Source: an uncultured Prevotellaceae bacterium (lineage in GTDB: Bacteria; Bacteroidota; Bacteroidia; Bacteroidales; Bacteroidaceae). From it: a stretch of DNA of 64,000 nt. Positions 18,974-56,323 of the stretch are shown in pieces. Position 1 is the first letter of the stretch; each line of letters opens with the position of its first letter. A model generated the notes under the pieces. The model was not told the origin of the DNA, searched no databases, and saw only the letters and a list, made by a program, of their open reading frames with translations. The stretch is taken from assembly GCA_946540735.1 (NCBI GenBank), contig CAMNIN010000005.1, positions 43,953-107,952 of the forward strand, written 5' to 3'. Both the position numbers and the translations under genes were made by a program.

Positions 18974-18981
18974 TACTTTTG
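18974..18981 (+). promoter_or_regulatory. -7 promoter box (TACTTTTG) upstream of rpoD
   Basis: It matches TAnnTTTG 23 nt upstream of the ATG at 19004. Confidence 0.5.
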
Positions 18982-19003: not shown

Positions 19004-19867
19004 ATGAGACAACTGAAAATCACGCAATCGATCACAAATCGAGAGAGCGCATCGCTCGACAAGTATCTTCAGGAAATCGGCCGCGAGGAACTCATCTCGG
19101 TAGAGGAAGAAGTGGAGTTAGCCCAGCGCATCCGCAGGGGTGACCGCAAAGCCTTGGAGAAGCTTACCCGCGCCAACCTCCGTTTCGTGGTCTCTGTGGC
19201 GAAGCAATACCAGAACCACGGTCTGAGCCTTCCCGACCTGATCAATGAGGGCAACCTGGGTCTGATCAAGGCAGCGGAGAAATTCGATGAGACCAGAGGT
19301 TTCAAATTCATCTCCTATGCCGTGTGGTGGATCCGGCAGAGCATCCTCCAAGCCATCGCTGAGCAGAGCCGCATCGTGAGACTGCCGCTCAACCAAGTCG
19401 GATCGGTCAACAAGATCAACAAAGTGCTCAACCAGTTTGAGCAGGAGCATGAGCGCCGTCCGAGCCTCGACGAGCTGGCCGCTTCTGTCGACTTGCCTGA
19501 AGACAAGATCGAAGACGCACTGAAGGTGAACACCCGCCACATCTCCGTCGATGCTCCCTTCGTGGATGGGGAGGAGAACAGCCTGCTCGACATCCTGCCC
19601 AACACCGACTCTCCCATGGCCGACAACGAACTCGTGATGGAGTCGCTCCGCAATGAGATCAACCGTGCCCTGCTCACCCTCAACGAGCGTGAGCGCCGCA
19701 TCATCGAAGCCTTCTTCGGCATCAACCAACCAGAGATGACCCTGGAGGAGATCGGCGAGAAGTTTGGCCTCACGCGGGAGCGAGTGCGCCAGATCAAGGA
19801 GAAAGCCATCCGCCGTCTGCGTCATAACACCAAAAACAAGTTGCTCAAGTCATATCTTGGCCAATAA
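19004..19867 (+). CDS. rpoD: Primary RNA polymerase sigma factor (Bacteroidetes-type sigma-A)
   Basis: The internal start [28 protein letters not shown] is typical of the 287-aa Bacteroidetes RpoD. Regions 2-4 are present ([58 protein letters not shown]). Confidence 0.95.
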
Positions 19868-19916: not shown

Positions 19917-20489
19917 ATGAGGAAAATCATATTCGCAACAACATTGATTGCCTTGATGCTGCATGTGCTGCCAGTGTCGGGCAAGATGCGCTGCACACCT
20001 GTCTATATCTTCGGCGTATCCGCCTCATTCAACGATTCCATCGTCTATTTCACTGAAATCCAAGTGCTCGACAGTGCATGGATTGACGAGAAGAGCGATT
20101 TCCTGGTGAAACGCAGCGAATACTCGATGCAACTGCGTGATCATTTCAAATCCCTCAGCAATTCTTCCCGCACCTGTCTGGTGGCTTTCGCTACCTCAGA
20201 AAAGGATATTCTGAAGAAATATGCGAAAATGCGCTCACAATTCGGCGACAACAAGAAAAAACATTCCCGCTCGTATGACATCCGGACTGTAGACGCCGAC
20301 GAGTTCAGATTTCAGTCTTTGGCTCCCGACGACCTTACCGAAGCCGTGACAGAAACGAGCAAGAAAGCCGTCAAGCGAGCCAAGAAGACGAAAGAGAAGA
20401 TTTCACAGGGCGTCATCAAAGAAGGGAAAAAGCGCAGCTCCAGCGATGAGGAGAGCGACGTTCCCCCATCAATGCCCCCACGCCATTAA
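19917..20489 (+). CDS. Hypothetical secreted protein with a basic/acidic disordered tail
   Basis: I use the internal start MRKIIFATTLIALMLHVLPVSG, which is a signal peptide. I recognise no domain. It lies 56 nt upstream of the HprK-like gene. Confidence 0.45.
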   Translation: MRKIIFATTLIALMLHVLPVSGKMRCTPVYIFGVSASFNDSIVYFTEIQVLDSAWIDEKSDFLVKRSEYSMQLRDHFKSLSNSSRTCLVAFATSEKDILKKYAKMRSQFGDNKKKHSRSYDIRTVDADEFRFQSLAPDDLTEAVTETSKKAVKRAKKTKEKISQGVIKEGKKRSSSDEESDVPPSMPPRH

Positions 20490-20545: not shown

Positions 20546-21445
20546 ATGAACGAAACGAGGTATTTCGAGATCGGCGAGCTCTTCATCAAGATCACTTTCG
20601 TCGATAACAAATACAACAACATGGGTATGCTCACCTCATTCTTCCCCTTCATGGTGAGTGAGAAGCCCGACGATGAGCTTATACTCGACATCACGGTGGA
20701 CGACACGCTGAAACCCATAGAGAAGAGCCGACGCGACCGCATACGCGATTTTGAGTCTGGCAACGGCAATATCATCGTCGACCTGATAGAGGGTGGAGGC
20801 TACCAGTTTATCTTCAAGGACCCCCGCGGCGCTGAATGCGGCATGTTTCAGATCGACAAAAGCTGCAAATATGTGAAGGCTGCCCTCAACGGCACTTTTG
20901 ACATGCGCAAGTTTGGTCTCCAATCCACCATGATGCTGTGCTACGCCATCGCCGGCTCATTCAAGCACACGGTCATGATCCATGCCTCGCTCGTGCGTCA
21001 CAACGGCTATGGCTACGCTTTTCATGCCGTGAGCGGCACTGGCAAGTCAACCCAGGTGAGCAACTGGCTTCGCTATATCCCCAACTGCGATTTGATGAAC
21101 GACGACAACCCAGTAATCCGTGTGATCGACGGCAAGGCCTATATTTACGGTTCACCTTGGAGCGGCAAGACCACTTGCTACAGGAAAATCAAAGCTCCTC
21201 TCGGTGCGCTGACCCGCATCGACCGTGACGACCACAACTGGGTGGAGAAATTGTCACCCATTCAGGGTTTCACCTCTGTTCTCCCATCATGCAGTTCGCT
21301 GAAATGGGACATTCCTGTCTACCGCAACGTGTGCGACACTGTCACCAAGATCGTGGAAAACGTCGGTACCTATATCCTGCACTGCCTGCCCGACAGGGAA
21401 GCTGCTGAGGTGTGTCACGCCGGCATCGCCGTGAAGGAGGCGTAA
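20546..21445 (+). CDS. HPr-kinase C-terminal-domain-like P-loop protein (putative peptide/protein kinase)
   Basis: The 299-aa ORF contains IHASLVRHNGYGYAFHAVSGTGKSTQVSNWL...MNDDNPVI...YGSPWSGK. This follows the HprK/PEPCK-fold pattern (hHa..v...g.g.l..G.SG.GKS ... DD). Confidence 0.6.
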   Translation: MNETRYFEIGELFIKITFVDNKYNNMGMLTSFFPFMVSEKPDDELILDITVDDTLKPIEKSRRDRIRDFESGNGNIIVDLIEGGGYQFIFKDPRGAECGMFQIDKSCKYVKAALNGTFDMRKFGLQSTMMLCYAIAGSFKHTVMIHASLVRHNGYGYAFHAVSGTGKSTQVSNWLRYIPNCDLMNDDNPVIRVIDGKAYIYGSPWSGKTTCYRKIKAPLGALTRIDRDDHNWVEKLSPIQGFTSVLPSCSSLKWDIPVYRNVCDTVTKIVENVGTYILHCLPDREAAEVCHAGIAVKEA

Positions 21446-21462
21446 CTTAAGCTATCCAGACC

Positions 21463-22068
21463 ATGCTCAACCGCAACAACAGTTTTTTCAAGTGGCTCCA
21501 CACTCATGACGGTGGCCAGAAGGTGATTCGACAACGAGGTACGAAGAACATCCCGCTTGAGAACCGCCTCTTCTTCCCCGTCATCGTGGAATACATCAAA
21601 GACGGACACACCGTGACCATCAACCTCCGAGGCAACAGCATGCGTCCCTTCCTGGAATCGGAACGCGACCGCGCCATGCTGACCCGCCCAGAACATCTGC
21701 GCGTCGGCGACCCCGTCTTGGCTGAGATAGAACCGGGGCATTTCGTGCTTCACCGTATCCGCAAGATGGAAGGAGACAACGTGACACTGATGGGTGATGG
21801 CAACCTCAACTGCGAATATTGCAAGGTGGAGGATTTCCGAGCCGGAGTGATCGGTTTCTACCGCAAGGGACGCAACACCATCGACCGCACAGACGGCATG
21901 AAATGGAAAGTGTACTCCTGGTTTTGGACGCACCTGCGACCCTTCCGCCGCTACCTGCTTGCCGCATACCGTTACATCTGGCTCAACCTGTTTCCTCTGA
22001 AATATCCCAAATACGCCAACGAGATACAGTTAGACCAACCCACAGCCTATAAGATCAAGAAACAATAA
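21463..22068 (+). CDS. SipW/Sec11-type (S26B-like, Ser/His) signal-peptidase-family protein
   Basis: The 201-aa ORF has the blocks GNSMRPF (Ser box), VLHRI (His box, compare SipW VTHRI) and MGDGN (compare SipW KGDNN). It has an amphipathic, aromatic C-terminal tail. Confidence 0.65.
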   Translation: MLNRNNSFFKWLHTHDGGQKVIRQRGTKNIPLENRLFFPVIVEYIKDGHTVTINLRGNSMRPFLESERDRAMLTRPEHLRVGDPVLAEIEPGHFVLHRIRKMEGDNVTLMGDGNLNCEYCKVEDFRAGVIGFYRKGRNTIDRTDGMKWKVYSWFWTHLRPFRRYLLAAYRYIWLNLFPLKYPKYANEIQLDQPTAYKIKKQ

Positions 22069-22086
22069 AACCATCATTTCCAAATT

Positions 22087-22374
22087 ATGAAAGCAAAAAA
22101 AGGATTCAACCTGCGTGAGATCTGCGGTGAGCAGATCATCGTAGCAGAAGGTAGAGAGAACATTGATTTCACTAATATCATCAGCATGAACGAATCATCG
22201 GCTCTGTTGTGGAGAAGCGTTCAGGACAAAGAGTTCACCGTCGACGACTTGGCAGACATCCTCGTCGAAAACTACATGATCGATGAGAACACCCCACTCG
22301 ACCGCGAGCGCGCCCTGAAAGACTCACAGGCCATGCTTGATAAATGGATCGAGGCTGGCATCGTCGAAGAGTAG
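22087..22374 (+). CDS. PqqD-family protein (RRE-like peptide-binding domain)
   Basis: The 95-aa ORF shows the PqqD pattern: MNESSALLWRSV..EFTVDDLADILVENY....ALKDSQAMLDKWIEAGIVE. Confidence 0.65.
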   Translation: MKAKKGFNLREICGEQIIVAEGRENIDFTNIISMNESSALLWRSVQDKEFTVDDLADILVENYMIDENTPLDRERALKDSQAMLDKWIEAGIVEE

Positions 22375-22406: not shown

Positions 22407-22438
22407 GGGGCATGTCATGATACCACATGGCATGCCCC
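22407..22438. terminator. Bidirectional hairpin between the convergent PqqD and GH51 genes
   Basis: The 8-bp GC-rich stem is ggggcatg / catgcccc. A T-rich run follows on the plus strand and an A/T-rich flank on the other. Confidence 0.5.
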
Positions 22439-47518: not shown

Positions 47519-48430
47519 TCAGAAAAGTTTTTGAGGATAGACACCCTCGTCGATCAGTTGCTGGATTCGTTCCACCACACTGGGTCTGTCGGCAGCGTAA
47601 GTCACGCCAAACCATTTACTTGTGGTATCAAGGACTTTCACCGTGGCTGTGCCCTCATTAATCAACTTATTGACCATCAACGGAATGAAGAACTCAGCCT
47701 TGAGATTCTCCATGTTCTTAGGATCACTGAGGAACTCCTTGAAATAAGCCTCACTATGTGTGAAATAGTCGGGGGTAAAGCCCCACATATTCATGCTCAC
47801 AGGGGTATTTTCTTCGACAGCCACCCATTCTCCCTGCTCGTCCTTATAGCAGATAGGTCCGTTGACTCTCATGATCTCCGTGCGCTCGACGACCGTTGTG
47901 AGGTTCTCTTCCTCATCCTTTGAGCAGATACCTCTTGCCACGGTGCCATTTTCCGAAAGCGTGTTGCCCACGCGGAATCCCACCATCGCATATCGGTTGG
48001 TGCTCCCCTCAGGAAGGTCAGCCAGGAATTTCCCGATGACCATAAAGGCGTCGCGGTTATAGAAATCGTCGCAATTGATGACACAGAACGGCTCGTTGAT
48101 CGCTTTTGCCGCCATCATGACAGCATGGTTTGTGCCCCAGGGCTTCACCCTGCCTTCTGGAACACAGAATCCCTCAGGCAGAGCGTCAAGAGACTGAAAT
48201 ACAAGTTCCGCGGGTATATGGCCCTCATACTTACTGAGGATTTTCTCTTTGAAATCCTGTTCGAAATCTTTTCTGATGACAAAAACGATTTTCCCGAATC
48301 CGGCTTTGATAGCGTCGTAGATGGAATAGTCCATGATGGTCTCACCGTTAGGTCCGAGTCCATCAAGTTGTTTCAGGCCACCATACCTGCTTCCCATACC
48401 GGCGGCGAGGAGTAACAATGTTGGTTTCAT
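47519..48430 (-). CDS. Sugar-phosphate nucleotidyltransferase-family protein
   Basis: I use the internal start MKPTLLLLAAGMGSRYGGLKQLD, which carries the G-rich NTP-binding loop. The protein is 303 aa. The specific substrate is unknown. Confidence 0.7.
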   Translation of the reverse strand: MKPTLLLLAAGMGSRYGGLKQLDGLGPNGETIMDYSIYDAIKAGFGKIVFVIRKDFEQDFKEKILSKYEGHIPAELVFQSLDALPEGFCVPEGRVKPWGTNHAVMMAAKAINEPFCVINCDDFYNRDAFMVIGKFLADLPEGSTNRYAMVGFRVGNTLSENGTVARGICSKDEEENLTTVVERTEIMRVNGPICYKDEQGEWVAVEENTPVSMNMWGFTPDYFTHSEAYFKEFLSDPKNMENLKAEFFIPLMVNKLINEGTATVKVLDTTSKWFGVTYAADRPSVVERIQQLIDEGVYPQKLF

Positions 48431-48497
48431 AATAACGAAATTTAATATAAGGTTGAATATTTCGTGCAAAAATAACAAAAAACTACCACATACGGCA

Positions 48498-48980
48498 TTA
48501 TCTCCGCTTATTTTTTTTCATCAGCTCATCGAGGAGCCCCCGACAAGCATCTTCAAGCAAGTCGATGACAAGTTCGAATCCCTGCTCTCCTCCATAATAA
48601 GGGTCTGGAACGGTATGGTGCATGGGGTGATGGCGGAGATAATCAGCCATACACACGATTTTCGCTTTATCATAAGGACTTCGGATTCTTGCCGCAAGGT
48701 CCATCTCATTCTCATGGTCCATGGCGACGATGAGATCGAACCGGTCGAAATCTTCCACCGTAAACTGCCTTGCCCTGCTGGTGAAGTCATAGCCATGCTT
48801 TTTGCCATGTGCCCTCATCCTGGGGTCGGGCAAGTCTCCCACATGCCATCCTCCGATACCAGCGGAGTCGACTGCGAAAACATGTTCCATACCCTCAACA
48901 GCGATAAGCTGCCGCATAATTTCCTCTGCTGCCGGAGAGCGGCAAATATTTCCCAAACAAACAAACAAAATGCGCTTCAT
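48498..48980 (-). CDS. Low-molecular-weight protein-tyrosine phosphatase
   Basis: The 160-aa ORF has the P-loop CLGNICRSP. The DP loop is VPDPYYG. Confidence 0.9.
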   Translation of the reverse strand: MKRILFVCLGNICRSPAAEEIMRQLIAVEGMEHVFAVDSAGIGGWHVGDLPDPRMRAHGKKHGYDFTSRARQFTVEDFDRFDLIVAMDHENEMDLAARIRSPYDKAKIVCMADYLRHHPMHHTVPDPYYGGEQGFELVIDLLEDACRGLLDELMKKNKRR

Positions 48981-49094
48981 GTCTCAAAACTATTTCTTTT
49001 ATTCTCTTTTTTCAGCTTCAGCAAGAAAAAGGCAGGAAAACCTTTGCCCTACTTCATTTTTTTCATTATCTTTGTACAAATTCTTGAGTTAGCT

Positions 49095-49952
49095 ATGGTA
49101 AATAAATCTCTTTCAAATTCCACATGGGCTGGCAGTATCTCATGCCAGCGCGTCAATTATACCACCAGAGTTGATTCTTCGAAGTTGAAGTCACCCGCCA
49201 ATAATTATGTTTACAGTCTTTTCGAAAAAGGCAAGGCCCGCATCAAATACAACAAAACCGAGATCGATGTTTGCGCAGGCGATCTTCTCATTTTTCCACC
49301 TTATATTAAACCCTGCCTCACCTGGAAAAGTGAAGAATACCAGGCTTTGTGCATGATTGTGAACGCCTCTTTCGTCTATAATTGTCCATTATCCCGGAAT
49401 GTTTTCCAGTCAGTCACTTTCTCTCTGATTCATGATACCGACCCCGTTTTACAGCTTACCCGTCAAGAGAAAGAAAAATTCAGATTGACCATGAGCATGA
49501 TTCTCTATCATCTGAAAGAAGAGCACACCTATACCATTGAGGCGTTGTATTCTCTTTACGGACTTTTTCTGGCCGATCTGATGTCAGTAATCAACAAGAA
49601 GAAATCGGAGAGTTTCAACAAGCATTATTACCAGATTTTCATTGATTTCAACAAATTGCTGCGCACTCATTTCAGATACCATCACGAAATCTCGTTCTAC
49701 GCAGACCAGTTGAAAATTTCAAGTCGCTATCTCTCCTTGGTGACCAAGCAAATCGCACATACCACGGTATCGACATATATCAACCGCCTGCTGATGCTTG
49801 AAGCCTGCTGGCTCTTGAAGAACACGGACTACAGCATTCAGAAAATCAGCGATACTCTGCACTTCTCAGACCAGGCCTCGTTCTCGAAATTCTTCAAACG
49901 ATTGAACGGCAGCAATCCGCTGTTGTATCGTCGGGAGAATGAAGTACTCTGA
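49095..49952 (+). CDS. AraC-family transcriptional regulator
   Basis: The real start MVNKSLSNS is at 49095. The C-terminal double HTH is FYADQLKISSRYLSLVTKQ...IQKISDTLHFSDQASFSKFFKR. The 539-aa track ORF is an artefactual upstream extension across two minus-strand genes. Confidence 0.8.
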   Translation: MVNKSLSNSTWAGSISCQRVNYTTRVDSSKLKSPANNYVYSLFEKGKARIKYNKTEIDVCAGDLLIFPPYIKPCLTWKSEEYQALCMIVNASFVYNCPLSRNVFQSVTFSLIHDTDPVLQLTRQEKEKFRLTMSMILYHLKEEHTYTIEALYSLYGLFLADLMSVINKKKSESFNKHYYQIFIDFNKLLRTHFRYHHEISFYADQLKISSRYLSLVTKQIAHTTVSTYINRLLMLEACWLLKNTDYSIQKISDTLHFSDQASFSKFFKRLNGSNPLLYRRENEVL

Positions 49953-49959
49953 GCCAAAG

Positions 49960-50547
49960 TCAGATCATCCCTGCAATATTCTCCAGCAGCTCCTTTGTCG
50001 ATATATTCATACCCAAAGCTCTCAAGCGTTTACAAATGTCACAGGCCTGGGCTACGGTTTTCATTCTGAAGTTGGCTGTCATGGCAGCCAAAGCCTCCAG
50101 TTCTGTAGCAAACACATGATCCTCGGTATAAGGCGTTCTGGAGTTGCGAAGTTTATAGGAGATTTCCCAATATCCCTTCAACTCATCGCCAAGGTCGACC
50201 CATTCTTTATCAATGCTTCTCACCACTCCCACTCCAGGAATACAGGCGATGGCAGAGGTATCGGTGACCCACACTCTGTCGCCGACAGAGAATCTTGCTT
50301 TTGGTTCGACGTCAGGGTCATCCTCTTTTTGGTCAAGAAGGCACTGCTTCTCATTGTTGAAAAATCCATTGAGCACGGAGCAGTTTCCTCCTTCAAGTGC
50401 TTGCAACTCTTCTCTGAGCTGAATGATTTCCTCGTCCGAAAAATCATGTCTGAGAAATCCATGCAGAAGCAACTCCTTGTCGAGCCTGGCCTCAAGGTTC
50501 ATGTCTTTGACCGAATTTTCATTCTCTAATTCAAATATCTGGTTCAT
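49960..50547 (-). CDS. Hypothetical cytoplasmic protein
   Basis: The ORF is 195 aa from MNQIFELENEN. I recognise no domain or signal peptide. Confidence 0.4.
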   Translation of the reverse strand: MNQIFELENENSVKDMNLEARLDKELLLHGFLRHDFSDEEIIQLREELQALEGGNCSVLNGFFNNEKQCLLDQKEDDPDVEPKARFSVGDRVWVTDTSAIACIPGVGVVRSIDKEWVDLGDELKGYWEISYKLRNSRTPYTEDHVFATELEALAAMTANFRMKTVAQACDICKRLRALGMNISTKELLENIAGMI

Positions 50548-50728
50548 CTTTCCTGATCGTTTTTTCTTTGCAAACTTAATGAAAAAAAACCACATACGCT
50601 TTGTTTTCCTATAAAAAAAGTGAAAGATGGCATTAAAAAGACCTTTTCACTTTTTTTCCAAATAAAATTTGCATGGTTTACCATAAATAATTACTTTTGC
50701 AGAAAGATCCGCAAATCAAACAATCATC

Positions 50729-51550
50729 ATGTCAACAATCGACCAATACCTTAAAAGCAACAACACTCAAGAGCGGGAATATTGTCTATACTGGCTGACG
50801 GCCTTTGGCATCCAGTCTGTGGTCGATCTCAAACCTTCCGACGACCTATTCCCGATTATCAGCCGACACATCGAAGGCGAAATCGACATCAAACGGACGA
50901 AGCAAGAAATCCATCGTTTCTACGACCATTCCAAACAGGGCAGCGGTGATCATCATATTCATCGTGGTGAGGAAGCCGATCTTGTCTCCTCACGAATCGT
51001 GGAGATTTTTTTATCAAAAGATTTCGACCTCTCGGTGCAAGGATTCAGCAACGTTCACCGCCAAATGTTCCATGGCATCTATCACCACTCCGGCCAATGG
51101 CGTGAGCGTCCTTTCAGCAAGAAGGAATGGGTGCTGGGCAATTCATCTGTACTCTACCCCGATGCCAGTCTGATCGAAGACTTCCTCAACCACCTGTTTG
51201 AGCAAGAGAAGAGCATCGACTACTCCCGGCTGTCTGAGAAGCACAAACTGATGAGCTACAGCATCTTTATCTCCAAGTTGTTTATGATCAATGCTTTCCA
51301 GTACGCAAACAGTCGAGCTGCTTTCGTCTACGGCATCAAATACCTGCTCACTCAGGGGTACCATCTTCGCAACACCACTTTTACCAAGGAAGCCTGGTAT
51401 TTCCGCAATGCCATCATCCGCGCATTCTACACCAACATGCATCAGGGCATCTATCCTACAACAACCTTCATGGAGATGTTTTTGGGCAATCTGCTCAACG
51501 ACGAGGACAATGAACTGAGAAACCACCGCATGGTGATCAAGGGAGAATAG
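50729..51550 (+). CDS. Fic-fold protein with a degenerate Fic motif and a VbhA-like N-terminal region
   Basis: The 273-aa ORF has Fic core helices (VHRQMFHGIYHHSGQWRE). Where the HxFx(D/E)GNGRxxR motif should sit it has NAFQYANSRAAF. The N-terminus resembles VbhA-type helices (LKPSDD...HIEGEIDIKRTKQEI). Confidence 0.55.
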   Translation: MSTIDQYLKSNNTQEREYCLYWLTAFGIQSVVDLKPSDDLFPIISRHIEGEIDIKRTKQEIHRFYDHSKQGSGDHHIHRGEEADLVSSRIVEIFLSKDFDLSVQGFSNVHRQMFHGIYHHSGQWRERPFSKKEWVLGNSSVLYPDASLIEDFLNHLFEQEKSIDYSRLSEKHKLMSYSIFISKLFMINAFQYANSRAAFVYGIKYLLTQGYHLRNTTFTKEAWYFRNAIIRAFYTNMHQGIYPTTTFMEMFLGNLLNDEDNELRNHRMVIKGE

Positions 51551-51553
51551 CCT

Positions 51554-52294
51554 TCATCTTCGCACAGTTTCCACCAATCCATATTGCGCCCAGTTGCCAA
51601 GCAACTTGGCGCAATCTTTTTTTGCTACAGCCTCCTCTACTTCATACACCTCCCGGATGGCCTTCACCATGTCCGGCAAGGTGAAACACTCATGGTCGAT
51701 ACCATCCCACACTGCCTTAGCAGCCTCATTGAAAGCAATCAGATGGTGCATGTCAACGCTCTTCCTGACCGTGTCGACGAGAACGACCCGGTTACCATGG
51801 ATGGTGTCAAACCTACAATGAGGTCTAACCCGAAAAGACTTGGCCAGGTCCACTTGCTGACTGGCTTTTCCTCTTTGGCCTCCCCCAGACTGCAAACCCA
51901 CCATGCAAGCAACAATATGCGATAAAACCGTGTGCTCCACATTCTTGTTATGATCACCCTTCAGCGTCACCTCCTGTCCCCGTATCTCCACGATACGATG
52001 CATGACGTAGTGCCCGGTATCAATCTCTGCCAGCACCACGTCACCAACCTTAACCTTATCCTTTGCACGTAGAGTAACTATGTCGGTGTTGTCTTGGATT
52101 GTGGGCAGCATGCTCCGCCCCTTAGGAACCATTGAAACCTCATACCCACGAAGCAAATAGGGTTTCATCGAAGCGAAGAAACCTTCATTGTCGATTTTAA
52201 CAACCTTGCAGCTACCGGATTCCTGACAACGCTCACAACTTGTTGTAAACAACAACAGCAACCATCCAATGATGTAAAAAAAACACCTTTTCAT
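51554..52294 (-). CDS. Fusion protein: SipW/Sec11-type (Ser/His) signal-peptidase-like domain plus C-terminal PqqD-like (RRE) domain, with an N-terminal signal/lipobox
   Basis: The 246-aa ORF starts MKRCFFYIIGWLLLLFTTSC. Peptidase blocks are GRSMLPT, VMHRIV and KGDHN. The C-terminal approx. 90 aa (FNEAAKAVWDGIDHECFTLPDMVKAIREVYEV..AVAKKDCAKLLGNWAQYGLVE) parallels the stand-alone PqqD protein at 22087-22374. Confidence 0.65.
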   Translation of the reverse strand: MKRCFFYIIGWLLLLFTTSCERCQESGSCKVVKIDNEGFFASMKPYLLRGYEVSMVPKGRSMLPTIQDNTDIVTLRAKDKVKVGDVVLAEIDTGHYVMHRIVEIRGQEVTLKGDHNKNVEHTVLSHIVACMVGLQSGGGQRGKASQQVDLAKSFRVRPHCRFDTIHGNRVVLVDTVRKSVDMHHLIAFNEAAKAVWDGIDHECFTLPDMVKAIREVYEVEEAVAKKDCAKLLGNWAQYGLVETVRR

Positions 52295-52313
52295 CCTATC
52301 AAGTTTTAGCCCT

Positions 52314-52321
52314 CAAAGATA
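52314..52321 (-). promoter_or_regulatory. -7 promoter box (TATCTTTG) for the peptidase-PqqD fusion gene
   Basis: The reverse complement of caaagata matches TAnnTTTG 20 nt upstream of the ATG at 52294. Confidence 0.4.
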
Positions 52322-52383
52322 CAAAAATAAAAGGCAAGAAGAGAAAAAAGTAATTGAATTTCTACTTTGTCGGTAAAAATGCG

Positions 52384-52391
52384 TATTTTTG
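52384..52391 (+). promoter_or_regulatory. -7 promoter box (TATTTTTG) for the ATP-grasp gene
   Basis: It matches TAnnTTTG. The first in-frame ATG downstream is at 52474. Confidence 0.4.
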
Positions 52392-52473
52392 CACAATCTT
52401 TAATGAATGTTCAACAAAAGCCACTTTGCTGGCAATAAGATGGCTAAAGACTCAAAGCCAAAGACTTATAGAT

Positions 52474-53619
52474 ATGAGAGCTATAGACAAATTTTTAAAG
52501 AAAGTCGTCCTTGGGAGCGACAGACGGGTGCGTGACTTTTGCGAGAAGAAACCCTCACGTCTGAGATTCTACGAAAACAAGTACATGCCCTTGCAACTGT
52601 CATTTTTCAGATGGCACAACTATGCTATAGGAGACCATGTGCTCGGAGCCTTAAGAAAATCTACCGAAAAATACATACGCATCAATCTCACTCCAGAACA
52701 AATGGCCGACGTGAAATACACATCTAAGCTAAGAGATGATATCATCAAGTGCCGTTTGATATACAAGACCCATCCCACAGAGTATTTTTTGTATGGATAC
52801 GAGCATCTGGACTATTGGCAGCGTAAAGAATACCTCTCTGATAGCGACCGATGGCGGATTCTCCATGAGCGTTTCGGCAAAAAAGTGCATCGCGAACACG
52901 CCGACAAATGGTTCTTCTACCATCTGGCCCAACCCTATTTTCACCGGGAGGCCTGCAAAGTAGGAGAAGAAGCCAAGAAAGAAGATTTCCTTCGATTCGT
53001 TTCCCGTCACCATGATTTTTTCGTCAAACCCCTTGATGGATGTTTTGGACGTAACGCCTATCGATTGGAAGCAGACAGCGAGGAAAAAGCAGAAGAGATC
53101 TACCAAAAGCTGGTTTCAAACGGTGTGTGGATAGTAGAAGAACTGATCACACAATCCGAAGAATTCGCTGCCTGGAATGCATCGTCGGTCAACACCGTGA
53201 GAATCGCATCCTTCCTCACCGCTGAAGGAGTTCACCACAACATCGTCCCATTTTTCCGTGCCGGTCGAGTTGGATCCGTCGTCGACAACGCTTTAAGCGG
53301 CGGAATTATCGCCGGAGTAGACGAGAAGACCGGTGTCCTATGTTCGGATGGAATGGATGAGGAGGGCCGGCATTTCAACGCTCATCCCGACTCTGGAATC
53401 GTATTTGAGGGGTGGCAAGTACCAGACTGGCAGGAGTTATGCCGTCTGACCGAGGAAATACACCGCTCACTCCCTCCATATCACAGATACATCGCTTTTG
53501 ACTTTGCCCATACCGCAAAAGGATGGGTACTGGTGGAAGGAAACTGGGGACAACTCATCTTCAACCAATCAGGATGCCATCGTGGCGTCAGAAAAGAGTT
53601 TTTAAATTACATAAAATAA
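52474..53619 (+). CDS. ATP-grasp-fold ligase with a long N-terminal extension (putative peptide ligase)
   Basis: The ORF is 381 aa from MRAIDKFLKK. ATP-grasp blocks are FFVKPLDGCFGRNAY (Lys/Gly loop), WIVEELITQSEE, NTVRIASF and FDFAHTAKGWVLVEGNWGQ (Mg/ATP E-x-N). The track start at 52354 is a TTG upstream of the promoter box. Confidence 0.7.
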   Translation: MRAIDKFLKKVVLGSDRRVRDFCEKKPSRLRFYENKYMPLQLSFFRWHNYAIGDHVLGALRKSTEKYIRINLTPEQMADVKYTSKLRDDIIKCRLIYKTHPTEYFLYGYEHLDYWQRKEYLSDSDRWRILHERFGKKVHREHADKWFFYHLAQPYFHREACKVGEEAKKEDFLRFVSRHHDFFVKPLDGCFGRNAYRLEADSEEKAEEIYQKLVSNGVWIVEELITQSEEFAAWNASSVNTVRIASFLTAEGVHHNIVPFFRAGRVGSVVDNALSGGIIAGVDEKTGVLCSDGMDEEGRHFNAHPDSGIVFEGWQVPDWQELCRLTEEIHRSLPPYHRYIAFDFAHTAKGWVLVEGNWGQLIFNQSGCHRGVRKEFLNYIK

Positions 53620-53701
53620 GAATAAAGTTATCAAAAGACCTGCAACTTCCCCTATTCTGAATTTTTTTACACAATTTCTTTGGTAGTAACAAAAAAATGA
53701 C

Positions 53702-53709
53702 TAACTTTG
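53702..53709 (+). promoter_or_regulatory. -7 promoter box (TAACTTTG) for peptide gene 1
   Basis: It matches TAnnTTTG 47 nt upstream of the ATG at 53756. Confidence 0.5.
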
Positions 53710-53755
53710 TAGCGTTTTAAATAATTATATTATTAACCCTTTAAAAAAATCAGTT

Positions 53756-53887
53756 ATGAAAGCTATTTATTCAGAGCCGATGACAAAGGTTATGTCCCTG
53801 AACGTGAAGGCCGCTATCTGCGAGAAAGAGCGTACTGTTTCTGAGCCTGACAACACAGACAAGCAAGAGGACATGCCTCTGTTCTAA
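53756..53887 (+). CDS. 43-aa candidate precursor peptide, copy 1 (MKAIYSEPMTKVMSLNVKAAICEKERTVSEPDNTDKQEDMPLF)
   Basis: I found this ORF by hand because it is below the 60-aa track cut-off. It has its own -7 box and its own terminator. A near-identical inverted paralogue lies 469 nt downstream. It sits immediately downstream of the ATP-grasp gene. Confidence 0.6.
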   Translation: MKAIYSEPMTKVMSLNVKAAICEKERTVSEPDNTDKQEDMPLF

Positions 53888-53910
53888 TCCAATCGGACAA
53901 AGACAGAACA

Positions 53911-53937
53911 GCCAGACCAAACGGTCTGGCTTTTTTT
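53911..53937 (+). terminator. Rho-independent terminator of peptide gene 1
   Basis: The 8-bp GC-rich stem (gccagacc / ggtctggc) has an AAAC loop. A T7 tract follows. Confidence 0.75.
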
Positions 53938-54306
53938 ATCTTTAGTATTTTTCAATCAAGCAAGAAATCAAATTATCAAAGTTGGATCCACTTTAAAAAT
54001 CTTTTTCATCACATTTTGATGTCCGCAAGGTTCCTCTCTCCTTCGGAGGAGCGGAGTCTCTTGTAATGCAAATGTATTCATCCGACTTTTTAAAATAGAT
54101 TAAAGTATTACTTTAGAAAATACATGTAAAGTCTTACGTGAATTACAATTATATCAACCTTTACGGAATATTTAAAAAATTCCACTCTTATGGACATATC
54201 AAAACGAAGATATAGAAATCCGCTGACCCTGAAGGAAACCATTTAAGGTCATCCCTAAGGAGCAAAGTGCTGACACGATCATCAATGATTGCAAAGAGAA
54301 TACAAC

Positions 54307-54332
54307 AAAAAAGCCAGACCGTTTGGTCTGGC
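54307..54332 (-). terminator. Rho-independent terminator of peptide gene 2
   Basis: It is the same gccagacc/ggtctggc hairpin in inverted orientation. A T6 tract follows on the minus strand. Confidence 0.75.
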
Positions 54333-54355
54333 TGTTCCATTTCTGTCCGATTGGA

Positions 54356-54487
54356 TTAGAACAGAGGCATGTCCTCTTGCTTGTCTGTGTTGTCAGGCTC
54401 AGAAACAGTACGCTCTTTCTCGCAGATAGCGGCCTTCACATTCAAGAACATAACCTTAGTCATCGGCTCTGAATAAATCTTCTTCAT
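54356..54487 (-). CDS. 43-aa candidate precursor peptide, copy 2 (MKKIYSEPMTKVMFLNVKAAICEKERTVSEPDNTDKQEDMPLF)
   Basis: I found this ORF by hand. It differs from copy 1 at 2 residues (A3K, S14F) and at 8 nt, all within the first 48 nt. The last 81 coding nt plus stop plus 12 nt of 3' UTR are identical. It has its own -7 box and terminator. Confidence 0.6.
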   Translation of the reverse strand: MKKIYSEPMTKVMFLNVKAAICEKERTVSEPDNTDKQEDMPLF

Positions 54488-54547
54488 AATGGTTAAAATT
54501 TAAATGTATTAATACAGTTAATTATAATTGTGTTATGAAACACGCAG

Positions 54548-54555
54548 CAAAGATA
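54548..54555 (-). promoter_or_regulatory. -7 promoter box (TATCTTTG) for peptide gene 2
   Basis: The reverse complement of caaagata matches TAnnTTTG about 60 nt upstream of the ATG at 54487. Confidence 0.5.
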
Positions 54556-54636
54556 TGTATTTTTCTGTACAAAGCAACTCTTTGGGTCATTCAATTAACA
54601 TCTATTAGCCAAACAAGCGCAATATTTAACATTAAT

Positions 54637-54876
54637 TTACTTTAGTTTATTCCAAATCCACAAGACGATGACTGCGCCCAGCACAGAAGTGCCAAAATTA
54701 CTAAAGGGACCACCCCATGTGATGTTGAGTAGATTAAGTACCCAACCTCCAACAACACTACCCAGGATACCTAGGAAAAAATCCATACAGCATCCTTTTC
54801 CTTCTCCGTCGGTAATTCTACTGGCGATATAACCCGCCAAAATACCTACCAAGATATAACCAAATGTGAGTTCCAT
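54637..54876 (-). CDS. GlsB/YeaQ/YmgE-family small stress-response membrane protein
   Basis: The ORF is 79 aa from MELTFGYILVGILAGYIASRI...FFLGILGSVVGGWVL...VLGAVIVLWIW. This is the typical Gly-zipper three-TM pattern. The track ORF over-extends. Confidence 0.8.
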   Translation of the reverse strand: MELTFGYILVGILAGYIASRITDGEGKGCCMDFFLGILGSVVGGWVLNLLNITWGGPFSNFGTSVLGAVIVLWIWNKLK

Positions 54877-54907
54877 ATCAAATCTATTTAGTGAGTAATT
54901 GCCAAAT

Positions 54908-55417
54908 CTATTTCGGATAGCCGGTGACCTCATTTTCAGCGGCCCTATCGAGAGAGTTCTCTTCCTCCAGCATGGTGTATGATGCCGCATGATCGTTGAG
55001 GAAGATCGAGTTTAGCGTATATTCCAATGATGTCAGCGTGGCGAGTCGTTGTTTGGGTCTAAGCTGGCACTCCCAGATAGTGATGCAATGCCATCCCAAT
55101 GCAGCAAGAGCAATAAGGTCGCGCTTGTCACGTGCGCGGTTGCGATCGATTTTCTGCTGCCAAAAGTCAGTATTGGTCTTTGGCATGCGGAAGGCGGCAC
55201 ACCCCTCATGCCCATGCCAGAAACACCCATTGACGAAGATACACGTGCGGTATTTTCTCATCACGATATCAGGATGCCCCGGGAGGCGTTTATGGAAAAG
55301 CCGATACCTGAATCCTCGTGAGAAGAGGAATCGGCGGACCAGCATCTCAGGCTTGGTGTTTTTCGACCTGATGGCCGCCATATTGTTATGACGCTGAATT
55401 TTATCGAGCGTATCCAT
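54908..55417 (-). CDS. vsr: Very-short-patch-repair (Vsr) DNA mismatch endonuclease
   Basis: The 169-aa ORF aligns block by block with E. coli Vsr: RSKNTKPE, LPGHPDIVMRKYRTCIFVNGCFWHGH, KTNTDFWQQKIDRNRARD and GWHCITIWEC. Confidence 0.9.
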   Translation of the reverse strand: MDTLDKIQRHNNMAAIRSKNTKPEMLVRRFLFSRGFRYRLFHKRLPGHPDIVMRKYRTCIFVNGCFWHGHEGCAAFRMPKTNTDFWQQKIDRNRARDKRDLIALAALGWHCITIWECQLRPKQRLATLTSLEYTLNSIFLNDHAASYTMLEEENSLDRAAENEVTGYPK

Positions 55418-55429
55418 TGTACGAGAAGA

Positions 55430-56323
55430 TCAAATGCCCAAACCTCCAGAGAAAGACACGTCAACCGCCTTGCTTTGCAGGATCCTCGACCCGGGTGGTA
55501 CACTATGCGTAAGCCAGATATTACCACCCACCACGGTATCATGCCCGATGGTTATTCTCCCCAGAATCGTGGAGTTGGCATAGATTGTCACACGGTCGCC
55601 AATGATGGGATGGCGGGGCACATTGACGGGTCTTCCACTGTCGTCGACCTGGAAATTCTTCGCCCCCAGGGTCACGCCCTGATAGATGGTCACATGATTG
55701 CCTATAATACAAGTTTCTCCGATGACGACTCCTGTACCATGGTCGATGGAGAAGAACTCCCCGATCTGAGCACCCGGATGGATATCAATACCAGTAGCTG
55801 AATGAGCCCTCTCGGTAAGGATTCTCGGCAGGACCGGCACTTTCATGACATGCAGTTGATGAGCCACTCGATAATGCAGCATCGCCTGCACCACAGGATA
55901 GCAAAAAATCACCTCGCTGTAATTGCGCACAGCAGGATCGTTGTCGTATATGGCCCTTACATCAGTGAAAAGCAAACGTTTGATTTCTGGAAGCGTATCG
56001 ATGAACTGGAGCATCATTGACTCAGCCTCTTGTTCCACTTTTTCATCACATCCTCTTTCAAACTGTAATGCGAGGGCTATTTGTTCCCGGAGTAAGATAC
56101 TCAGTCGTTCGACATTCACTCCGATATGATATTCCCGGAAAGAGGCGTCGTCTAACTTATCGTCGAAATAGGCAGGAAACACGATGTCGCGCACCAGCTC
56201 TACGATAGTGCGAAGTGCTTGCACAGAAGGCAATGTTCGTCCTGAACACGCCGCAACGATGCCTTCTTCTACTGAAGTATCAGAGAGCAATGCAATATTT
56301 TTCTTGAAGACCTTTTCTTTCAT
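55430..56323 (-). CDS. cysE: Serine O-acetyltransferase (long Bacteroidetes form)
   Basis: The 297-aa ORF has the hexapeptide-repeat core GIDIHPGAQIGEFFSIDHGTGVVIGETCIIGNHVTIYQGVTLG. Confidence 0.85.
   Translation of the reverse strand: MKEKVFKKNIALLSDTSVEEGIVAACSGRTLPSVQALRTIVELVRDIVFPAYFDDKLDDASFREYHIGVNVERLSILLREQIALALQFERGCDEKVEQEAESMMLQFIDTLPEIKRLLFTDVRAIYDNDPAVRNYSEVIFCYPVVQAMLHYRVAHQLHVMKVPVLPRILTERAHSATGIDIHPGAQIGEFFSIDHGTGVVIGETCIIGNHVTIYQGVTLGAKNFQVDDSGRPVNVPRHPIIGDRVTIYANSTILGRITIGHDTVVGGNIWLTHSVPPGSRILQSKAVDVSFSGGLGI

Follow-up and report, generated by a model that had tools for sequence, protein, structure and literature searches.

Three adjacent genes at positions 20546 to 22374 of a 64,000-nucleotide (nt) stretch of DNA from an uncultured Prevotellaceae bacterium (the window, as we call this whole stretch) encode a P-loop protein, a peptidase, and a PqqD-family protein, with no precursor peptide gene beside them. 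This raises the question of what the three proteins, here called the triad, act on. An earlier note on this DNA had suggested that they may act in trans on peptides of 43 amino acids (aa) encoded 31 kb away in the same window, next to a second set of peptidase and PqqD domains, or on an unlinked substrate. We confirmed that the triad consists of three + strand open reading frames (ORFs) with intergenic gaps of exactly 17 and 18 nt, and that the three domains had been called correctly, based on Pfam, structure prediction, and Foldseek. Conserved and inherited vertically, the triad is a module of the Bacteroidales that is best represented in Prevotellaceae, and we are confident that it is independent of the 43-aa peptides.

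The distribution of the triad was assessed in loci from two sources. A scan of one genome per species showed that the P-loop gene, hereafter ScmC-like, is carried by at least 587 species genomes, and the best 80 of these loci were analyzed. A pattern-based scan of metagenome contigs, seeded with the family of the second peptidase/PqqD protein in the window, gave 463 relatives, of which again the best 80 loci were analyzed. The genome loci span Prevotella, Hoylesella, Hallella, Palleniella, Alloprevotella, Paraprevotella, Prevotellamassilia, Muribaculaceae, Paludibacteraceae, and others, and isolates with the triad include Hoylesella saccharolytica F0055 and Prevotella ihumii. The ScmC-like gene was found in 78 of the 80 genome loci, with an adjoining peptidase gene in 73/80 and an adjoining PqqD gene in 70/80, where the same three-gene order recurs. 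In the metagenome set, 74 loci were split triads, and about 69 of the 74 kept the triad order with the ScmC-like gene directly upstream of the peptidase gene. Since the same genes stand in the same order in 70/80 genome loci and about 69/74 metagenome loci, the recurrence of the triad is far beyond chance. Junctions between the triad genes are tight or overlapping in the related loci, and sequence identity over these loci ranges from 31 to 94%.

The protein families are correspondingly large. The ScmC-like family has 3207 relatives in a collection of 5.8 billion proteins, the best 120 of which are all Prevotella/Hoylesella-like (top match 94% identical), and the peptidase family has 1939. An exhaustive search of a clustered library with the ScmC-like protein returned 6242 representatives at E ≤ 1e-3 and 415 at E ≤ 1e-30. 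In some organisms, the proteins are physically joined: we found fusions of the ScmC-like protein to the peptidase in five independent clusters (P0130, P0135, P0213, P0272, and P0262), and in one locus (L043) a fusion of the peptidase to an NTP_transf_5 nucleotidyltransferase. Cassettes from Muribaculaceae, Paludibacteraceae, and other Bacteroidales gain an NTP_transf_5 nucleotidyltransferase (PF14907) together with an ABC exporter of ~545 aa. The three triad proteins are thus co-inherited and sometimes fused, and their catalytic motifs do not vary; the natural fusions suggest that they associate physically.

The second locus occupies positions 50729 to 54487. It encodes a Fic-like protein of 273 aa (50729 to 51550, + strand), a protein in which an S24/S26 peptidase domain is fused to a PqqD domain (51554 to 52294, − strand), an ATPgrasp_ST gene (52354 to 53619, + strand), and a 43-aa precursor-like peptide (53756 to 53887, + strand) with a second, inverted copy that is 95% identical (54356 to 54487, − strand). 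Profile searches of the window found a single ScmC-like gene and two copies each of the peptidase and PqqD. The two sets are true paralogs. We reproduced exactly the 27 of 60 identities that the earlier note had counted by hand in an ungapped alignment of the peptidase cores. Formal alignment gave 35% identity over 111 aa for the peptidases (E value, 9e-22; with an ortholog profile, 8.5e-29). The PqqD protein of the triad and the C-terminal domain of the fusion share 26% identity over 97 aa (E = 1e-11; with an ortholog profile, 1e-17).

This paralogy, the lack of a precursor beside the triad, and the fact that HprK-like kinases phosphorylate precursor peptides in lasso peptide clusters (PMC7533575) all speak for action in trans, in which the kinase would phosphorylate the two 43-aa peptides, with the split peptidase and PqqD doing the same job as the fusion. 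We nevertheless consider this very improbable. The triad is widespread, with thousands of protein clusters in addition to the species genomes counted above, whereas the fusion cassette is rare: the protein collection holds at least 9 fusion relatives, all from metagenomes, a count that is a lower bound because the same word-indexed search also overlooked split peptidases of ~35% identity. The best 80 metagenome loci, although retrieved with the fusion family, included only 6 of the fusion type. No fusion homolog from an NCBI source was among the matches, even though isolates carry the triad. The second cassette also has its own peptidase and PqqD domains, and the two PqqD domains are only 26% identical. 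No ScmC-like gene lies within 8 to 10 kb of any fusion locus, and conversely, the 7 to 10 kb around each triad in the 80 genome and 74 metagenome loci contain no fusion, ATP-grasp, Fic-like, or peptide gene. A profile hidden Markov model of the 43- to 45-aa peptides, run against six-frame translations of all loci and of the window, found only the known copies of the second locus. Hence, by family sizes and the best metagenome loci, the two loci show no specific co-occurrence; as the retrieved loci span at most 10 kb and the two loci of the window are 31 kb apart, their independence was judged by the difference in family size. We have dropped the link between them, tempting as it was, as unsupported.

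Other features of the fusion also set it apart from the triad. The fusion peptidase domain is about equally distant from all triad peptidases (median identity, 32%), so the fusion is an old paralog and not a local duplicate. Fusion proteins begin with a lipoprotein-like signal, consisting of a hydrophobic stretch and an invariant Cys20, which is absent from the split peptidase. Judging from this signal, the fusion probably works outside the cytoplasm, unlike the split peptidase. GC content around the triad is 0.527, typical of the window, and that of the second locus (48000 to 56000) is lower, at 0.43 to 0.465, which fits an accessory or acquired segment.

The fusion loci have a composition of their own. 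They always contain one or two genes for 43- to 45-aa peptides and the gene for the 273-aa Fic-like protein. The peptide leader is conserved among relatives (MK.IYSEPMTKVM.LNV.A.ICE), and the core is variable and ends in PLF. An ATP-grasp gene is present in the window and in four related loci (L007 to L010) and missing from four others (L093 to L096), which are flanked as in the window by Vsr and CysE on one side and AraC and LMWPc on the other. The Fic-like gene is the most constant companion of the peptide and fusion genes, and its product matches the PADLOC candidate defence family PDC-S72 (E = 3.7e-74) and, more weakly, PDC-S04. Because of this match and this constancy, the second cassette may be a toxin or defence-type system instead of an ATP-grasp cluster for a ribosomally synthesized and posttranslationally modified peptide (RiPP). 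For the triad, an anti-phage defence role was rejected because PADLOC gave it no match.

We then turn to the triad proteins themselves, beginning with the ScmC-like protein (20546 to 21445, + strand, 299 aa). Searches of the PDB by sequence alone gave marginal results for this protein and for the peptidase, and both folds were assigned by structure prediction and Foldseek. The AlphaFold2 (AF2) model of the ScmC-like protein, built with 35 homologs, is a two-domain P-loop protein with the fold of phosphoenolpyruvate carboxykinase (PEPCK) and HPr kinase (predicted local distance difference test [pLDDT], 93; predicted template modeling score [pTM], 0.90). Its best PDB match is the ATP-PEPCK 1oen (E = 1.5e-7; TMq, 0.50), with both domains aligned. 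The runner-up is the HprK/P structure 1knx (E = 2.8e-5), and the Lactobacillus casei C-domain fits with a root mean square deviation (rmsd) of 4.6 Å. Alignment to full-length HprK/P is poorer (TMq, about 0.3) than the two-domain alignment to PEPCK.

Motif conservation agrees with this picture. Across 47 diverse family members (28 to 52% identity), the invariant residues are His146, Ser148, the Walker A motif Ser163-Gly-Thr-Gly-Lys167-Ser-Thr, Asn185-Asp-Asp-x-Pro, and Gly202-x-Pro-Trp-Ser-Gly-Lys208. In the profile of these sequences, the segment 'lliHaSv…FlgkSGtGKSThs' aligns with the PEPCK kinase-1a motif 'LCMHASAN…FFGLSGTGKTTLS'. The protein thus shows the features of the PEP-carboxykinase-like superfamily, namely the fold, the His-x-Ser strand before Walker A, and the DD motif after it. 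On the strength of the model, we place it in the PEPCK/HprK superfamily, at least as close to PEPCK as to the HprK C-domain, and we infer that it is an ATP-dependent phosphotransferase. It had been described as HprK-C-domain-like; AlphaFold and Foldseek back the kinase fold, and the label itself is too narrow and should be widened to the PEPCK/HprK superfamily.

Curated families give a similar, fainter signal. The nearest NCBIfam matches are ScmC (TIGR04249) and HprK_rel_A (TIGR04352), both weak (E, ~2e-4) and far under the curated cutoffs, with 20.6 bits against a cutoff of 125 for the former and 20.1 to 26.2 bits against 200 for the latter. The window protein has no Pfam Hpr_kinase_C match, and one relative reached 21.6 bits against the TIGR00679 cutoff of 240. 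Homologs carry precomputed matches to Pfam PF27840 'ScmC', some of them flagged faint, and one is named SCM cassette protein in UniRef.

The second gene (21463 to 22068, + strand) encodes a 201-aa Ser/His peptidase of clan SF (S24/S26). Its match to Pfam Peptidase_S24 (E = 5e-4) is slightly under the gathering score, and 28 of 33 orthologs match S24 (best E, 1.5e-8) and 2 match S26. The AF2 model has a core with pLDDT above 90, which Foldseek matches to the C-domain of LexA (1jhf_B; TMt, 0.57; rmsd, 3.1 Å), to those of UmuD' and lambda cI, and also to SipA and SpsB. Invariant residues include Ser59 in a GxSMxP motif, His97-Arg98, and Gly111-Asp112-Gly113-Asn114. In the alignment to the signal peptidase SpsB, His97 takes the position of the catalytic Lys. 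This Ser/His arrangement is of the SipW/Sec11/archaeal (S26B) type. The C terminus forms a conserved aromatic and basic helical hairpin (residues ~146 to 176). Reading the N terminus, we found no hydrophobic segment, membrane anchor, or signal sequence, so the catalytic domain should be cytoplasmic. The previous description of the protein as a SipW-type peptidase therefore stands for the catalytic pattern (Ser59, His97, GDGN) and fails for the membrane anchor, which is missing, and for the family scores, which lie under the cutoffs: the split peptidase has no NCBIfam match, and its fusion paralog scores 30.8 bits against the TIGR02228 cutoff of 51.85.

The third gene (22087 to 22374, + strand) encodes a 95-aa protein of the PqqD family, presumed to be a peptide chaperone of the RiPP recognition element type. 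It matches Pfam PF05402 at 44.8 bits (E = 1.6e-11), well over the gathering cutoff of 23.4, and has no NCBIfam match. PqqD orthologs from distant cassettes weakly match lasso PqqD chaperones (NF033530; E = 3e-5).

What would such a set of proteins do? We propose that PqqD binds a recognition segment of a peptide, or of a protein terminus, encoded elsewhere in the genome. The PEPCK/HprK-fold enzyme would then phosphorylate the bound substrate with ATP, and the cytoplasmic Ser/His peptidase would cut off the recognition segment. In other Bacteroidales families, the nucleotidyltransferase might further tailor the product and the ABC exporter release it. Such a RiPP-like maturation of an unlinked substrate is suggested by the natural fusions and by the distant cassettes that add an ABC exporter. 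The partner genes also match the accessory set of lasso clusters, which lends the mechanism support: these clusters include an HprK-like kinase, which phosphorylates a Ser of the precursor peptide, a nucleotidyltransferase, the PqqD-type B1 protein, and an ABC exporter (PMC7533575). The peptidase and PqqD may be read as a recognition-plus-cleavage unit because the fusion at the second locus, with the same domains, adjoins obvious precursor peptides; that cassette is the best local evidence for such a unit. Weighing all of this, we regard the mechanism as an evenly balanced proposition.

Several observations weigh against it. The search for a substrate was negative: neither the window nor about 150 related loci have a conserved small ORF within or next to the cassette. 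RiPP clusters do not usually sit in the core genome, in an apparent operon with the sigma factor gene rpoD, as the triad does. The resemblance of the P-loop protein to PEPCK, a small-molecule enzyme, is at least as good as that to the protein kinase HprK, so that phosphorylation of a peptide is deduced and not read directly from the fold. Some Rikenellaceae-like genomes have a lone ScmC-like gene (361 aa) beside truB, with neither a peptidase nor a PqqD gene in its vicinity. Finally, the literature we searched describes neither the triad nor its link to rpoD or its function.

The precursor search covered more than the immediate neighborhood. A listing of all ORFs of at least 20 aa between 19.8 and 22.6 kb contained only ORFs nested in larger genes, so the statement that no precursor lies nearby is correct; the exhaustive listing around the triad bears it out. 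Likewise, no conserved small ORF was found in the overlong gaps of orthologous cassettes or between the genes around 17 distant cassettes. One candidate, a 51-aa ORF in locus L070, proved to be a peptidase N terminus broken by masked bases. In a few orthologous operons, extra sequence separates the peptidase gene from the PqqD gene: in L020 (8335 to 8829) an ORF of 164 aa whose N terminus is hydrophobic, and in L012 (8435 to 8728) a short tandem-repeat segment, neither of them conserved elsewhere.

With no precursor, cyclase, or other core modifying enzyme nearby, the triad could be taken for the decaying, nonfunctional remnant of a lasso-like or other RiPP cluster that has lost its precursor and cyclase. 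This is barely credible. The three genes are intact, their order is kept even between families (31 to 94% identity), and there is no variation in the Walker A, DD, Ser/His, and GDGN motifs; this is the signature of purifying selection, not of decay.

The missing precursor also bears on a reading with no peptide product at all, in which a PEPCK-like enzyme phosphorylates a small metabolite, or has a housekeeping or regulatory role linked to rpoD, with the peptidase and PqqD as regulatory partners. The best structural and sequence matches, which are to PEP carboxykinase, fit this reading, as do the lone ScmC-like genes and a housekeeping neighborhood (htrA and rpoD upstream; aspS, a mur ligase gene, and truB nearby in relatives). 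To our knowledge, however, every characterized PqqD-family protein binds a peptide. For the lasso B1 protein, published work supports this (PMC7533575). Moreover, the recurring fusions and the partners (peptidase, nucleotidyltransferase, and ABC exporter) are typical of peptide maturation, and the paralogous peptidase/PqqD fusion adjoins clear precursor peptides. We judge a function without a peptide unlikely.

RiPP-like maturation of an unlinked substrate could also take a housekeeping form. The triad would then be a core-genome machine of Prevotella and other Bacteroidales for PqqD-guided phosphorylation and subsequent proteolytic trimming of a conserved unlinked peptide or a housekeeping protein, co-transcribed with the primary sigma factor and ancestral to the fusion cassette. 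We put this forward tentatively and with more doubt than belief. If true, it would describe either a 'housekeeping RiPP', such as a signal or cofactor precursor, or a previously unrecognized protein-processing pathway.

Known systems offer several partial parallels. Lasso clusters with PadeK/ThcoK-type kinases share with the triad a P-loop enzyme of the HprK/PEPCK fold and a small PqqD protein, and share NTP_transf_5 and the ABC exporter with the distant Bacteroidales cassettes. They differ in having an Asn-synthetase-like cyclase, a transglutaminase-like B2 protease, and an adjacent precursor, none of which is found at the triad in the window and about 150 loci. The protease of the triad instead belongs to the S24/S26 clan with a Ser/His active site, and its genes lie in the core genome beside rpoD.

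Further cassettes contain an HprK-related or ScmC protein. In the HPr-rel-A system, HprK-related kinase A is accompanied by a chaperone of the PqqD family; in the GAK system, HprK-related kinase B is accompanied by an ATP-grasp enzyme. HPr-rel-A (TIGR04352) thus has the same pairing as the triad, and its kinase is among the nearest curated families by sequence. The triad differs in scoring 20 to 26 bits against 200 and in having no second kinase or ATP-grasp gene adjoining it in about 150 loci. More broadly, ATP-grasp RiPP cassettes (graspetide-like or GAK) are set apart by the absence of an ATP-grasp gene within 7 to 10 kb of the triad in the 80 genome and 74 metagenome loci. The SynChlorMet cassette consists of ScmC, a PqqD homolog, and two radical-SAM/SPASM proteins, and we know of no precursor identified for it. 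It shares with the triad the pairing of PqqD with a ScmC or ScmC-like protein, homologs of the latter matching PF27840, some of them faintly, but no radical-SAM/SPASM protein is among the conserved neighbors of the triad in the 80 genome loci, which has a peptidase gene instead, and the TIGR04249 score is 20.6 against 125. That cassettes of this kind link HprK-related proteins to PqqD had been stated in the earlier note, and the link holds, given that HprK_rel_A and ScmC are the nearest NCBIfam matches and that HprK-like kinases occur in lasso clusters (PMC7533575).

The peptidase has its own relatives. S26B signal peptidases (SipW/Sec11) have in common with it the GxSMxP Ser, a His at the position of the general-base Lys, and GDxN, but the triad peptidase lacks their membrane anchor, has an extra C-terminal helical hairpin, and scores under the family cutoffs. 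With the S24 peptidases LexA and UmuD it shares the fold of the catalytic core, based on Foldseek and Pfam; it lacks their DNA-binding domain and has an invariant His in place of the Lys general base. The fusion cassette in the window shares paralogous peptidase and PqqD domains with the triad and differs in that they are fused, carry a lipoprotein-type signal, and adjoin precursor peptides, and in its rarity, low GC content, and lack of a ScmC-like gene. By analogy, the closest functional parallels of the triad would be the kinase-plus-B1 portion of lasso clusters and Haft's HprK_rel_A/PqqD and ScmC/PqqD cassettes. The triad appears to belong to none of these, because of its sub-cutoff scores, the different protease clan, and the absence of radical-SAM, cyclase, B2, and ATP-grasp neighbors.

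The components of the triad are already catalogued, as PF27840 'ScmC', 'S24/S26 family peptidase', and PqqD, and the triad itself is undescribed in the literature searched. Source names for its proteins go no further than 'hypothetical', 'S24/S26 family peptidase', and 'PqqD family'; peptidase orthologs at NCBI, for example, are labeled 'S24/S26 family peptidase [Prevotella sp.]'. Among the dominant bacteria of the gut, mouth, and rumen are Prevotella and its relatives, and hundreds of their species have the operon, beside the main sigma factor gene and with intact catalytic residues. If the triad does mature an unlinked peptide, this would point to a conserved phosphopeptide signal or cofactor in a leading group of the microbiome, and RiPP-type recognition modules would be shown to exist in the core genome with no precursor beside them, where genome mining based on clusters misses them.

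In relatives, metagenome contigs included, the usual gene order is htrA–rpoD–secreted protein–ScmC-like–peptidase–PqqD. Across the 80 genome loci, the only conserved neighbors are htrA, rpoD, the secreted protein, the peptidase, and PqqD, with the ABC exporter and NTP_transf_5 in some. Upstream rpoD is found in at least 36 genome loci and many metagenome loci, and upstream htrA is found in 29 genome loci. In the window, the rpoD-type sigma-70 gene (19004 to 19867, + strand, 287 aa from the ATG at 19004) is the first of an apparent transcription unit, and the orthologous 287-aa gene of relatives encodes Sigma70 regions 1.2, 2, 3, and 4. The −7 promoter consensus of Bacteroidetes is TAnnTTTG, and a match to it, TACTTTTG, lies at 18974 to 18981 (+ strand), 23 nt upstream of the rpoD ATG. 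Gaps within the unit are at most 56 nt. We found no −7-like motif in the 56 nt before the ScmC-like gene and no terminator- or promoter-like motif between rpoD and the triad. Directly after the PqqD stop codon, at 22407 to 22438 (+ strand), is an intrinsic-terminator-like hairpin with a 13-bp GC-rich stem and a T-run, and the gene beyond it is convergent. From these motifs, a single transcript would appear to run from a promoter near 18974 through rpoD, the secreted protein gene, and the triad to this terminator.

The secreted protein gene (19917 to 20489, + strand) is likely a member of the operon. In most Prevotellaceae, a gene of this family stands between rpoD and the ScmC-like gene. Its product carries a Sec-type signal peptide, whose cleavage site is AxA-like, and a conserved ~110-aa domain with the family core motif 'vYiFG.s.SFNDS.vYfT..Q … YS.QL', and it gave no Pfam or PDB match. 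The gene lies directly upstream of the ScmC-like gene in 56/78 genome loci and in most metagenome loci, often overlapping it or sitting within 30 nt.

SipW is paired with TasA/TapA in Bacillus. By analogy, the triad might process this secreted protein, with the peptidase as a SipW-like signal or propeptide peptidase, PqqD as a chaperone, and the P-loop protein as an ATP-dependent helper. The close and often overlapping gene arrangement would agree with this, as would the AxA-type signal peptide site, which is a cleavage preference of the S26 family, and the SipW/Sec11-type Ser/His pattern of the peptidase. The peptidase, though, has no anchor or signal sequence, which should leave its catalytic domain in the cytoplasm; the signal peptide sequence is not conserved and so would offer PqqD no conserved recognition element; and Muribaculaceae and Paludibacteraceae cassettes keep the triad without the upstream gene. 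We therefore hold this role to be decidedly unlikely.

Some individual loci deserve mention. The lone 361-aa ScmC-like genes are those of L081, L083, and L084, from high-GC Rikenellaceae-like genomes. A TruB::ScmC-like fusion (P0229) may reflect either read-through in gene calling or a genuine connection to RNA modification. Bins labeled Clostridia, Paratractidigestivibacter, Oscillibacter, and Fibrobacter succinogenes (L018, L025, L027, and L080) have triad loci of the kind typical of Bacteroidales. Upstream of the triad, Prevotella-like htrA and hypothetical genes are also present in three of them (L018, L025, and L027), and rpoD in L018 and L027. These four contigs are probably mis-binned or their records mislabeled.

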